In this document: in pieces, positions 10,158 to 13,151 of the stretch
How the letters are laid out: each line of letters opens with the position of its first letter
Numbering within the stretch: position 1 is the stretch's first letter
Assembly: GCA_029262635.1 (NCBI GenBank)
Contig: JAJCZA010000005.1
Location: forward strand, 607,371 to 671,370
Origin: Vampirovibrionales bacterium
GTDB lineage: Bacteria > Cyanobacteriota > Vampirovibrionia > Vampirovibrionales > Vampirovibrionaceae
Length of the DNA: 64,000 nt
Direction: 5' to 3'
Position numbers and translations under genes: made by a program
The notes under the pieces: generated by a model
Told to the model about the DNA's origin: nothing
Database searches by the model: none
What the model saw: the letters and a program-made list of their open reading frames with translations, nothing else

Positions 10158-10275
10158 ACTATAGCGAGAAAGCCTGAAAGAATCACGCTTTATCCTGTGG
10201 GAGGCAATCACTATCCACTCGTCCCGTCTTTGTAAATTGATGTTAAATCTGTCTATCTTCAAGATATGTTTCTTT

Positions 10276-10302
10276 TCAAGTTCCCCTTTCCTCCGCCGAT
10301 AG
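10276..10302 (+). promoter_or_regulatory. Sigma-28 (FliA/SigD)-type promoter
   Basis: TCAA(G)-N15-GCCGATAG, 39 nt upstream of the GTG at 10342. The consensus is TAAA/TCAA-N15-GCCGATAA. Confidence 0.7.
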
Positions 10303-10341
10303 GTTTATTACGAGGCACGTTTTAAGCGTTGGAGATCGGTT

Positions 10342-11718
10342 GTGGCTATTGGCAGTATCAATATTAATCGCTTTCAGGGGGCTACCCAGCGGTATTTGCA
10401 AAATACCCAGCAACAGAATATGAACCTATATTCTGTTAGTGGTAACAGTTTGACTGCCAACACCACGGGACGAAATAGTCTGAATGCTAATTCATCTTTT
10501 ACCATCCCTCAAACCGATTTTAGTGCTTCTTATGCGGTTAATCAGCAGCCGACGGAGGCCAACTTATTCCAGCGAGGCAATTATCTTAATATTCGGGCTG
10601 ATCAGCGCTTCCTACGGAACTCGGCCCCCGTCGAAGCTCGGAACATCAATGAAGCTAATAACTTTCAGCGCCCTTTAAATCTAAACTTTACGGGGGATAG
10701 TAAATTTCGCCCTGGGTTTGATAATAAGGTCCCACTGCAAGCGCCTCTCACACCAACGCGAGCTGATTTCCAGGACCGCATTAAACATTATGAACTCTCT
10801 GATGCTCATTTCAATACCTTAAAAAACGGGCCGGATTTTCTCATTCCCAGAAATGGACCTCTTGGGTTTAAGGTGCTTACCGATGGTGCGGGAAATATTA
10901 CCGGTATTGAAACCGATACAGCCCGATTTGCGAACCAGTTTGACGGAACTCGAAACAATGAAGGGCTTCTGGCTAACCGTTATGAGATCACCCAAGGTGC
11001 TCAGTTTACTGCCAACCCTATTGCCGCCCGAAATATTGCCATTCAGCCACCGGGCGCCCCCAATCCGAAAGGCCCCATTAACGCACAAGATCTGCTTTTA
11101 CAAGAACTGACCAACAATCAGAATTTCAATGCTTTGAAACTTAATCCAGACCTTTTTAATGTGAATCTGGGACCAGCTCAAAATATTAACCCTTTTCTCC
11201 GCGGTCCTTTATCCAACCCATTTGCTGAACGACTGGCTCAGCTCCAACCACAAGAACAAGGCATCGCCGTCTTTGGCAGTGAATCGGAGATTGGGGTGGA
11301 AACCGCTCTCCAGATGGCCGCCTCAAAAGCAAAATTAAACCTGAATCTTGGCGAAGACTTTGCTAAAAACCTTCACGGCCTGCAGAATGCGGCTCTTCAA
11401 CAAGGGTTGGTTTACTCCCCTGCTAAACATGCCGCTGAAATGAGTGGGATGATCCCGATGGTTGCTACGCTCCCGGCTCCGACCAAGAACGCGGGTGAAG
11501 TGGGTCTGATTAGTTTATCGCAAGACCTTGGAACCAGTTTTATGGCCGATACACTGGAAAAAAAGGGCGGTGGAGGAACTTACATGTCGTTTCGCAATGA
11601 AGGGCAAGGGGCAGGTGGTCAGGGCGAGCCGTCAGGACAAAACCAGCAGGGCTTTGGTGGGAATTCACAAAAACAGCAACAGCAACATCAGCAACGTCGT
11701 TTTTCTTACAATGCCTAA
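10342..11718 (+). CDS. Q/N-rich low-complexity hypothetical protein (candidate flagellar/T3-exported, FliK-like tail)
   Basis: 458-aa ORF with a GGAG RBS, no signal peptide and no Cys or Trp. It ends in a G/Q-rich tail ...QKQQQQHQQRRFSYNA. Confidence 0.7.
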   Translation: MAIGSININRFQGATQRYLQNTQQQNMNLYSVSGNSLTANTTGRNSLNANSSFTIPQTDFSASYAVNQQPTEANLFQRGNYLNIRADQRFLRNSAPVEARNINEANNFQRPLNLNFTGDSKFRPGFDNKVPLQAPLTPTRADFQDRIKHYELSDAHFNTLKNGPDFLIPRNGPLGFKVLTDGAGNITGIETDTARFANQFDGTRNNEGLLANRYEITQGAQFTANPIAARNIAIQPPGAPNPKGPINAQDLLLQELTNNQNFNALKLNPDLFNVNLGPAQNINPFLRGPLSNPFAERLAQLQPQEQGIAVFGSESEIGVETALQMAASKAKLNLNLGEDFAKNLHGLQNAALQQGLVYSPAKHAAEMSGMIPMVATLPAPTKNAGEVGLISLSQDLGTSFMADTLEKKGGGGTYMSFRNEGQGAGGQGEPSGQNQQGFGGNSQKQQQQHQQRRFSYNA

Positions 11719-12371
11719 GCCAGCCCAGCCCCACCGCCGGTTTGTTCTATCCAGCCCATAACCCATTGGAACAGGGTGATGCAAATAACCCCGGTTAGGG
11801 TAAGTACGCCCATAACCACAACGGTCAGCGTGGCGTAGAAGAGGTTAATCAAAAACTCGCAGACAGGCAACGCCATAACCACCAGCAGGGTGGTTAACCA
11901 GCGTTCGACGGAAATGGGTTGATGAGAGACGGTTAATCGTCCATCTCGATCCCAACTGGTTTGTCCGGTCCGTTTCAAAAAGAAAAAGGCGTAGATTAAT
12001 GTGACGACATTGATTAGAGGCAGTCCCAGCGCCAGTGCCCGGAACCAAACATCGCCGGACCGTTTTAACGCTTGGGAATACGATAGTTTCTCGCCCGTCT
12101 CATGACGAAGCTGCACTCGAAGCATCCACTTTCCTGGCGTGGTTCCCCACCAGGACAGCATAATGGCCTCAATAAAAATAGCGAGAAAAAAGACGACCAT
12201 CATGACGATTAAATAAATGGGTGTAAAAAACAATCCCCACCCCGCGCCTGTTATCAGTGGAAAAAGAACCAACAAGGTTATCAGATAGTACAGGGCAAAA
12301 TCAAACGAGCGAGCCCAATAACGCACCCATGGTCTTGTCTGGTTTTGATTATCGATTAAACTTTTGGCCAT
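11715..12371 (-). CDS. RDD family membrane protein
   Basis: Motifs RPWVRYWARSFD, GTTPGKWMLRVQL, ALKRS and TSWD, with several TM segments. Confidence 0.85.
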   Translation of the reverse strand: MAKSLIDNQNQTRPWVRYWARSFDFALYYLITLLVLFPLITGAGWGLFFTPIYLIVMMVVFFLAIFIEAIMLSWWGTTPGKWMLRVQLRHETGEKLSYSQALKRSGDVWFRALALGLPLINVVTLIYAFFFLKRTGQTSWDRDGRLTVSHQPISVERWLTTLLVVMALPVCEFLINLFYATLTVVVMGVLTLTGVICITLFQWVMGWIEQTGGGAGLA

Positions 12372-13151
12372 TTACCGTACCTGAACCATCTTATGAGTTT
12401 GAGGAATGACCCGAACCTCTTTAAACCAGCGGGCGAGCTGATCTTGAACTCGTAAAATGTGGGCAGGTTCCAAATGTATGCGGTGATCGGCCAGAGAGGT
12501 AACCGGTTGCAGAATAATGGGCAGGGTTTGATCCAAGATGGTCTCTCGTACCTGTGCCAGTTCCTCATCGGTGGTGTTTTTCCCAAACACGAGTTTAATA
12601 AAGACCTCGACTTCGGGCCGAGTGGCGGCCATGGCCAAAAAGGCCTGATGTTCGTTAAACAAGGCTCGTTCTCCGGTGGTGGAGGGGAGTTTGATATCCA
12701 TGGCAATCACATCCGTCCAGGGCAAAACTTCAGACAAAAACGCCGCCTGTGTTCCACTGGTTTCTAAATAGGTTTGAATGTCGGGATGGTTTTTTTTGAA
12801 TTCTTCAAGCAATGTTTTTAAAAATCGGTGATACAACAGAGGTTCTCCACCGGTGAAACTGACGCTGTGGTGCCGACCCTGAGCAAGTAGGTTGTCGATT
12901 GCCTGTAAAAGTGTTTCGGTAGAAACTGGGTTGTCGTAAGCCTGAGTTTGGGGTGAACCGGGTGAAAGCTCAGCATAAAAGCGACCGTCTTCAGTGGTCA
13001 TCGCCGTATCACAGTAAGCGCATTTTAAATGGCAGTGAGCAAATCGAACAAACACCTGCCGATGCCCAACGTAAACCCCCTCCCCCTGAACGGAAGAAAA
13101 GACCTCCTGTATGGGGGCGGCATTCTGGGTTTTTGGTAGGGTTATTTCCAT
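12372..13151 (-). CDS. queE: 7-carboxy-7-deazaguanine synthase (radical SAM)
   Basis: Motifs EVFSSVQGEG, FVRFAHCHLKCAYCDT (CX3CX2C), SFTGGEPLL, YLETSG and VRVIPQTHK. Confidence 0.9.
   Translation of the reverse strand: MEITLPKTQNAAPIQEVFSSVQGEGVYVGHRQVFVRFAHCHLKCAYCDTAMTTEDGRFYAELSPGSPQTQAYDNPVSTETLLQAIDNLLAQGRHHSVSFTGGEPLLYHRFLKTLLEEFKKNHPDIQTYLETSGTQAAFLSEVLPWTDVIAMDIKLPSTTGERALFNEHQAFLAMAATRPEVEVFIKLVFGKNTTDEELAQVRETILDQTLPIILQPVTSLADHRIHLEPAHILRVQDQLARWFKEVRVIPQTHKMVQVR

Follow-up and report, generated by a model that had tools for sequence, protein, structure and literature searches.

The window analysed here, a 64-kb stretch of DNA from a Vampirovibrionales bacterium (64,000 nucleotides (nt) of contig JAJCZA010000005.1, assembly GCA_029262635.1), carries a gene for a protein of 458 amino acids (aa) that belongs to an undescribed family restricted, within the genomes searched, to the class Vampirovibrionia (Melainabacteria). 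The sigma-28 (FliA)-type promoter in front of the gene is of a textbook kind; the family that it would drive is new, with nothing to describe it in Pfam, NCBIfam, PDB or the source annotation. What makes the family most interesting is that genomes without flagellin but with a reduced flagellar-type apparatus still keep it, together with a sigma-28 promoter. We tentatively read the protein as a substrate that a flagellar-type type III apparatus would export in the late class, an assignment that we consider possible rather than probable.

A class-restricted protein family

A search with the 458-aa protein itself found orthologues in 18 of 40 related genomes, 14 of them among 24 genomes of the same family and the others in two sister families (2/5 and 2/11). 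Searched against 1.84 billion representatives at E ≤ 1e-3, a profile of 17 orthologues (A1) picked up 84 clusters, of which 58 reached E ≤ 1e-30; its weakest matches were proteins of 170–290 aa with the same motifs. A profile built from these smaller proteins (A3) was then searched against 301 genomes sampled across the class, where it matched 109: 16/24 in genome family f1, 2/5 in f2, 1/19 in f3, 2/2 in f4 and 87/99 in f7, a family of gut Melainabacteria whose 87 positive genomes carry short forms of 165–200 aa. There were no matches in f5 (0/96), f6 (0/30), f8 (0/9), f9 (0/12), f10 (0/3) or f11 (0/1), nor among 149 genomes outside the class, a phylum-wide cyanobacterial sample. The family as a whole spans 165–530 aa. 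When the long forms (A1) were compared with the short forms (A4, 28 sequences) using hhalign, the two aligned with 96.9% probability (E 1.4e-10), residues 305–419 of the window protein corresponding to residues 48–149 of the short form. Taken with the class-wide matches, this makes the window protein the long form, found in Vampirovibrionales, of a family that extends across the class, so the original prediction, made from the window sequence alone, was mistaken in calling the gene an orphan.

Database searches gave little further information. The 458-aa protein had no match in Pfam at E ≤ 1 or in NCBIfam at E ≤ 10; PDB sequence and profile searches returned noise at E about 0.8 or nothing, a protein Atlas search gave no usable match, and no paralogue was found within the source genome of the window (G000; 2.99 Mb, 31 contigs). 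No convincing Pfam domain was present in 18 scanned profile-matched clusters, and the sole cluster name was 'hypothetical protein'. In a profile search of genome contigs, the closer alignment A2 recovered eight loci and the 458-aa protein alone none. We found no account of the family or of a Melainabacteria sigma-28 regulon in the literature covered, which did not extend to the supplementary flagellar gene lists of two studies (PMC4040986, PMC4451040).

A conserved sigma-28-type promoter

The candidate promoter of the window gene, TCAA-N15-GCCGATAG, lies 40 nt from the start codon (table 1). Within the window, TMAA-N15-GCCGATA occurs once, against 0.06 expected, and at least one match was obtained in 6 of 100 shuffles; across the whole of G000, T[ACG]AA-N15-GCCGATA occurs 21 times, compared to twice for a control read backwards. 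The spacer at 10263–10341 contains no sigma-70-like site, and no terminator-like hairpin was found. Both flanking genes are on the opposite strand, one divergent and one convergent, so the gene is monocistronic. Its GTG start is backed by the two closest database relatives, P0001 and P0002 (74% and 50% identity), both of which begin MAIG.

We next asked how widely the promoter is shared. After removal of L030, whose contig ends 22 nt upstream, the duplicates L081 and L104 (of L020 and L023) and loci L039–L045 from repeat genomes, 44 de-duplicated loci remained, comprising 16 long, 26 short and 2 medium forms. Motifs were sought from −200 to +170 around the called start, with equal-sized windows from the rest of the same loci as background. 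A strict motif, T[ACG]AA-N15-17-CCGA[TA]A, was present at 22 of 44 loci (background 0.014 per window), a less strict one, T[ACG]AA-N15-17-CCGA, at 33 (0.059 per window) and a relaxed version that also allows [CAT]CGATA at 38 (0.071 per window). The mid-to-relaxed motif is therefore found at 33–38 of the 44 loci where about three would be expected. Six loci (L019, L020, L028, L033, L077 and L099) had no match, and at two of these, L019 and L099, a degenerate motif can be seen by eye at the homologous place. Gut short forms carry TAAAGTTT-N11-GCCGATA, which we take to be the classical sigma-28 consensus, about 40 nt 5′ of the ATG.

G000 encodes FliA (TIGR02479, 265.5 bits against a curated cut-off of 189.6), along with an FlgM-like protein, FliK and two FlhA. 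The motif is also found in G000 before a flagellin gene (207-nt leader), before GGDEF and HD-GYP-type proteins, before a flagellar-region protein resembling YvyF and before several ORFs with no Pfam match, and it lies approximately 360–400 nt upstream of two further flagellin genes. With the motif at 33–38 of 44 loci and FliA in the genome, FliA control is well supported, and we regard FliA-dependent transcription of the gene, as judged from sequence, as very probable. The predicted promoter and the protein are kept together across two orders. In these respects the original prediction has held up well: it had placed a sigma-28-like promoter before a stand-alone gene, and the checks that it proposed, for fliA and flhA in the genome and for a promoter conserved upstream of orthologues, came out in its favour.

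In the leaders of loci L078–L105, most gut short-form genes carry two GGA motifs (AAGGAAA ... AAAGGGAUA) between promoter and ATG that resemble CsrA sites. Control by CsrA and FliW, an idea taken from these motifs, was rejected because CsrA and FliW are found in only one of five gut short-form carrier genomes.

Protein architecture

The 458-aa protein contains no Cys and no Trp and is rich in Asn (11.6%, against 4.4% in the long open reading frames (ORFs) of the genome) and Gln (9.4% against 4.5%), about twice the genome values. The highest Kyte–Doolittle mean over 19 residues is 0.81, so there is no transmembrane segment and no signal-peptide-like core. Composition and hydropathy profile thus both agree with the original description of the product, and the internal GNYLNIRA segment (residues 79–86), G/Q-rich linker and RRFSYNA end that it listed are all present. 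AlphaFold2 (AF2) modelling gave low scores: with the long-form alignment, the mean predicted local distance difference test score (pLDDT) for the 458-aa protein was 42.6 and the predicted template modelling score (pTM) 0.15, with residues 1–77 below a pLDDT of 50; with the short-form alignment the values were 54.7 and 0.19, with three helices and the rest of the chain unstructured. The protein is accordingly predicted to be largely disordered, the few amphipathic helices and short conserved motifs of the shared core lying towards its C-terminus.

A conservation profile computed over 64 long forms was used to locate these motifs. In the N-terminal extension, which is mostly specific to the long forms, conserved blocks are found at residues 47–71, 146–198 (FLIPRNGPLGFKVLTDGAGNITGIE) and 209–224 (NRYEITQGAQF; NRxEIT.GA), the last of which also occurs in medium forms. 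In the second block, around FxIP..G.G..V.TDG.G, residues L160, F166, G175, T180, D181 and G184 are invariant in 17 sequences. The core shared with short and medium forms carries the motifs NPFAERLAQLQPQE, a helical AxQxAAxxAxLxLxL, (D/S)G-x-IPM and KKGGGGTYMSF (KKGSGGYIPF in relatives). Conservation runs through residues 290–351 (NP..ERL.QLQP.E.G..V.G, followed by a helical ARQxAAxxAxLxV segment) and resumes at residues 365–391 (DGxIPM), 399–425 (KKGSGGYxPF) and the last 19 residues.

The extreme C-terminus is strongly patterned. Of the 64 long members, 57 end in Ala and 6 in Gly; R or K occupies positions −7 and −6 in 49 members each, P position −5 in 35, one of L/F/M/I position −4 in 56 and one of F/Y/L/I/W position −2 in 51. 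Short forms end alike, in a hydrophobic-(F/I/L)-small pattern (SIFA or NIFA, for example) after a K/E-rich linker. A variable linker followed by a conserved tip is the architecture of a tethered docking peptide, which is the role that the sequence pattern suggests for it here. At the other end, the N-termini (MAIGSININ..., MALNV.NQN..., MSLGITLNTN...) resemble the flagellin start of G000, M-x-[LI]-x-[IV]-N-T-N, a weak likeness noted by eye, and the 458-aa protein has no Pfam match at E ≤ 1 to the terminal domains Flagellin_N/C or Flg_bb_rod.

Flagellar and export genes in the class

FliA was found above cut-off in 197 of the 301 class genomes and FHIPEP, the FlhA-type gate, in 202. FHIPEP is missing essentially only from f5 (1/96) and f10 (0/3) and is present in every genome of f1 (24/24), f2 (5/5), f3 (19/19), f4 (2/2) and f7 (99/99), the genome families into which all 109 family-positive genomes fall. 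Since these genomes are close kin, that coincidence represents a few independent events, not 109. Genome family f5, which is without FliA, is also without the family in all 96 genomes. Most class genomes have two or three FHIPEP copies. Each of the two in G000 (862 and 684 bits) matches FlhA better than SctV, at 824 and 641 bits.

Five 99%-complete gut genomes of f7 that carry the short form (G080, G155, G094, G128 and G248) were examined closely. In the first four, Flagellin_N, FliW and CsrA were not found. In these four the short form and its promoter are accompanied by FliA, a pair of FHIPEP genes (about 730 bits), a single FliF-like gene (about 111–126 bits) and two or three small rod-like ORFs; of the MotA/ExbB family, only a protein of 216–227 aa was found. 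G248 has this reduced set plus a canonical set, with three FHIPEP, two FliF, eight Flagellin_N matches, FliW and CsrA, and it is the only one of the five with a large hook-type ORF. Of nine Gastranaerophilales genomes studied by Soo et al., only three had complete flagellar sets and the others 'only a subset of genes' (PMC4040986), a description that the four flagellin-less genomes fit. As these genomes keep two divergent FlhA copies with FliF-like and rod-like genes, and G248 has the same genes alongside a canonical set, the reduced set suggests a second flagellum-derived system, not mere remnants.

Possible functions of the family

Flagellar export substrates are Cys-free, rich in N, Q, G and S, and unfolded. 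The export reading is preferred because the window protein has no Sec signal and shares this composition and predicted lack of fold, and because its family occurs only in genomes with FHIPEP and has been kept with FliA, FlhA-like, FliF-like and rod-like genes after the loss of flagellin. The substrate-type features themselves (no Sec or Tat signal, a predicted unfolded N-terminus and no Cys) are permissive, not specific. On this reading, FliA would direct transcription from the sigma-28 promoter in the late class; the C-terminal tip, on its flexible linker, would dock a cytoplasmic partner, for example an export chaperone or the C-terminal platform of FlhA, before export; and the protein would then leave through the flagellar-type type III apparatus. 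Its role would lie not with the filament but with FliA itself or with an apparatus that is either residual or a second one, because the family is kept in gut genomes that lack flagellin, FliW and CsrA but have FliA, two FlhA-like gates, a FliF-like ring and rod-like genes.

Several observations weigh against export. Among FliA- and FHIPEP-positive genome families, the protein family was not detected in f6, f8 or f9 and in only one genome of f3, which could reflect real absence or fast divergence. A sigma-28 promoter alone does not imply flagellar export, since in Bdellovibrio the FliA motif is present at 92 of 140 attack-phase promoters, many of them of non-flagellar genes (PMC3627812). No flagellar genes stand beside the family gene at the Vampirovibrionales and gut loci examined. 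Docking motifs that act in the cytoplasm, too, typically consist of a conserved peptide at the C-terminus, borne on a flexible linker.

This last point leads to a different explanation, which we think somewhat unlikely: the protein could remain in the cytoplasm as a regulator or adaptor in the sigma-28 circuit, its tip docking FliA, a protease or unfoldase, a tetratricopeptide repeat (TPR) protein or a switch component, with feedback on late genes or the motor. Linker-plus-tip modules are known from FtsZ, SSB, CheZ and the NWETF peptide of chemoreceptors, and the strongly conserved tip after a variable linker would suit an adaptor of this kind. The conserved helices look, in the models, like segments that might fold on contact with a binder. 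The family is retained with FliA in the flagellin-less genomes, with no Pfam FlgM found in any of the five gut genomes, and the gene would be sigma-28-autoregulated, as flgM is. On the other hand, a composition without Cys and rich in N, Q and G is what one would rather expect of an exported flagellar protein, and a separate 119-aa FlgM-like protein is encoded by a stand-alone gene in G000 and kept in 19 of 24 other relatives searched. The G000 copy falls below the Pfam and NCBIfam cut-offs, 15 of 16 aligned copies match Pfam FlgM (PF04316), and no obvious sigma-28 site was seen upstream of the gene. The present family has no profile similarity to this lineage FlgM-like family (hhalign 0.2% and 0.1%), and neither the 458-aa protein nor the 28 short forms (at E ≤ 1) matched PF04316, so FlgM homology was rejected.

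The best hits to the FlgM model in G080, G155, G094 and G128 were very weak (12.6–15 bits) and all lay in ORFs of 478–494 aa (table 1). These ORFs may be orthologous and carry an FlgM-like stretch.

We consider it unlikely that the gene instead belongs to an enlarged, non-flagellar sigma-28 regulon, such as a dispersal or attack-phase programme of a predatory or host-associated bacterium, and encodes Q/N-rich surface, adhesive or self-assembling material or takes part in some other non-type-III process. Sigma-28-type sites in G000 and the flagellin-less gut genomes do stand mostly before uncharacterised or non-flagellar genes, for GGDEF, HD-GYP and LysM-repeat proteins and for ORFs with no Pfam match. 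In the four flagellin-less gut genomes TAAAG-N14-16-CCGATA occurs 10, 10, 17 and 17 times, compared to 5, 3, 3 and 2 for the reversed control, and precedes the short form, a protein of more than 480 aa with no Pfam match, a LysM-repeat protein and other uncharacterised ORFs. The richness in Q and N and the predicted disorder fit such a role, as does a TDGxGxxD block in the N-terminal extension that is FG-GAP/Ca-loop-like, a likeness drawn from weak profile hits to P0080 only; Bdellovibrio offers the precedent (PMC3627812). Against it, neither a signal peptide nor any other export signal that could take the protein to the surface is recognisable, family members occur only where FHIPEP-type gates are encoded, and the short forms do without the N-terminal extension.

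The reduced gene sets point to a more specific variant of the export reading, and one that we likewise judge unlikely. A second, divergent flagellum-derived export system, comprising an FlhA paralogue, a FliF-like ring and small rod-like proteins, would operate under FliA without flagellin and be kept in 'non-flagellated' gut species, and the family would provide one of its dedicated, sigma-28-timed substrates or its gatekeeper, docking the gate or a chaperone via the R-R/K-P-L-x-F/Y-x-A tip.

The original prediction had also seen a FliK-like tail and hence a possible hook-length ruler in this long, low-complexity, Q-rich protein with a hydrophobic-x-A end, a proposal that is now scarcely credible: there is no Flg_hook match at E ≤ 1, the long forms score 0.1% and the short forms 0.4% when compared by hhalign with FliK C-terminal domains from 12 relatives, all 15 genomes searched have a canonical FliK carrying Flg_hook (in G000 at 57 bits, in a 666-aa ORF, with a second, weak FliK-like ORF elsewhere), short members have only about 165 aa, and the family is kept in genomes where a large hook-type ORF was not seen.

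Why the family may matter

The family and its promoter survive in Melainabacteria of human and animal guts that have no flagellin, FliW or CsrA but have FliA and reduced export-apparatus genes. This suggests that the 'leftover' flagellar genes noted in 2014 (PMC4040986) form a system that still works and has clients of its own, timed by sigma-28. If the second export system proves true, the cyanobacterial phylum would add a further example of flagellar machinery turned to the secretion of proteins. The short conserved C-terminal peptide and the small 165-aa form provide handles on the reduced apparatus. Should the protein turn out to be an ordinary cytoplasmic regulator, it would be only a modest addition to FliA regulons.

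Genomic setting and further sigma-28-type sites

The features of the gene and its surroundings are collected in table 1. Of 27 Vampirovibrionales loci, duplicate genomes counted, 17 have the QueE-like radical-SAM gene as a neighbour and 14 the GHL10 gene; the short forms have ATP-binding cassette (ABC) transporter or solute-binding genes and uncharacterised genes as neighbours.

Table 1. Positions of the gene, its parts and neighbours in the window, and of related genes and sites in the genomes compared.
Feature	Position	Strand	Remarks
Sigma-28 (FliA)-type promoter	10276..10302	+	−35 TCAA 10276–10279, 15-nt spacer, −10 GCCGATAG 10295–10302
Shine–Dalgarno GGAG	10331..10334	+	7 nt 5′ of GTG start
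Coding sequence, 458 aa + stop	10342..11718	+	GTG start; undescribed, class-restricted, mostly disordered (predicted) protein family
N-terminal extension, residues 1–289	10342..11208	+	mostly specific to long Vampirovibrionales forms
Core, residues 290–425	11209..11616	+	common to 165–290-aa short and medium forms; from hhalign, conservation and short-form occupancy
G/Q-rich low-complexity linker, residues 419–451	11596..11694	+	length and sequence vary among relatives
C-terminal tip RRFSYNA	11695..11715	+	family consensus R-[RK]-P-[LFMI]-x-[FYL]-x-A at C-terminus
GHL10-family glycosyl-hydrolase-like protein, 772 aa	7944–10262	−	upstream neighbour, divergent
RDD-family membrane protein	11715–12371	−	downstream neighbour, convergent; stop codon overlaps that of the 458-aa gene
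QueE-like radical-SAM protein	12372–13151	−	beyond the RDD-family gene
FliA, G000	G000:C2:211721-212395		
FlhA-type genes, G000	C22:85580-87553 (L012); C5:421187-423163 (L011)		
FlgM-like gene, 119 aa, G000	G000:C23:176405-176764 (L106:1360-1719)		
ORFs of 478–494 aa with weak FlgM-model hits	L117 G155:C3:243830; L118 G128:C1:9857; L119 G080:C5:121612; L120 G094:C8:96387		
Sigma-28-like sites 5′ of three flagellin genes, G000	G000:C22:16227, C22:17807, C5:533544		
YvyF-like ORF, 256 aa, G000	G000:C5:184870-185640 (L062)	−	
Q/N-rich ORF, 354 aa, G000	G000:C2:135235-136299 (L054)	−	
Protein of >480 aa, start MG[LM]AASQARLLSITSR	L134:2-1444 (−), L136:1-1446 (−), L139:1-1449 (−), L153:1572-3026 (+)		
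Paralogues of 109–111 aa, G000	C31:1987(−), C2:421011(+), C2:94944(+), C12:32959(+), C18:32026(+)		

Other genes with sigma-28-like sites were recorded along the way. Such sites lie approximately 200–400 nt 5′ of three flagellin genes of G000, which implies unusually long leaders; G000 also encodes FliW. The 256-aa ORF at L062, 45 nt after TCAATTTT...GCCGATA, has a weak match, short of the cut-off, to TIGR03826 (E 3.8e-6), the model of the 'flagellar region protein' YvyF, whose gene in B. subtilis is part of the sigma-D-dependent flgM operon. A TPR protein linked to sigma-28 is encoded at G000:C12:18511-19887. A Q/N-rich 354-aa ORF with no Pfam or NCBIfam match (L054) begins 57 nt after TCAAGTCC...GCCGATA, and in the own-genome paralogue search it was not similar to the 458-aa protein. 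The protein of more than 480 aa mentioned above starts MG[LM]AASQARLLSITSR, and each of the four gut genomes without flagellin has a sigma-28-type site in front of its gene. Finally, G000 has five paralogues of 109–111 aa with the same 36-aa N-terminus, of which only the copy on C31 has a sigma-28-like site.

Relation to known sigma-28 systems

The sigma-28 class 3 consensus, recognised by FliA in E. coli and Salmonella and by SigD in B. subtilis, is TAAA-N15-GCCGATAA. The family resembles class 3, or late, flagellar genes in having the same two boxes and spacing, an encoded FliA and a promoter conserved over two orders. It differs from them in that no known late flagellar protein is homologous to its product, and that gene and promoter persist in flagellin-less genomes. 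The attack-phase regulon of Bdellovibrio bacteriovorus is similar in that the predator's TTAAG-N16-CCGATA precedes many non-flagellar or uncharacterised genes (PMC3627812). Bdellovibrio belongs to an unrelated phylum, however, and the present family also occurs in gut Melainabacteria that are not predatory. With FliK and other type III rulers carrying Flg_hook, the 458-aa protein shares length, low complexity, richness in Q and lack of Cys, but it lacks their defining C-terminal domain and its genome already has a canonical FliK. A late gene under CsrA–FliW control, of the B. subtilis hag type, is a poor parallel, given that four of the five gut short-form genomes lack both proteins.

FlgM, the anti-sigma-28 factor, is intrinsically disordered, sigma-28-dependent and exported by the flagellar type III secretion system. 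The family is like it in its predicted disorder with a few helices, its sigma-28 promoter and its lack of a Sec signal, and unlike it in size (165–530 aa, compared to about 100 aa for FlgM), in showing no profile similarity and in its extreme C-terminal tip; to our knowledge, FlgM has no conserved tip of this kind. The Fed, FspA and Cia proteins of Campylobacter are sigma-28-dependent non-flagellar proteins that are exported through the flagellum. They are unrelated to the present family in sequence. Even so, a lineage-specific protein of uncharacterised fold, placed under sigma-28 control away from the flagellar clusters, describes both, and these Campylobacter proteins are the closest functional analogy for the export reading of the family.

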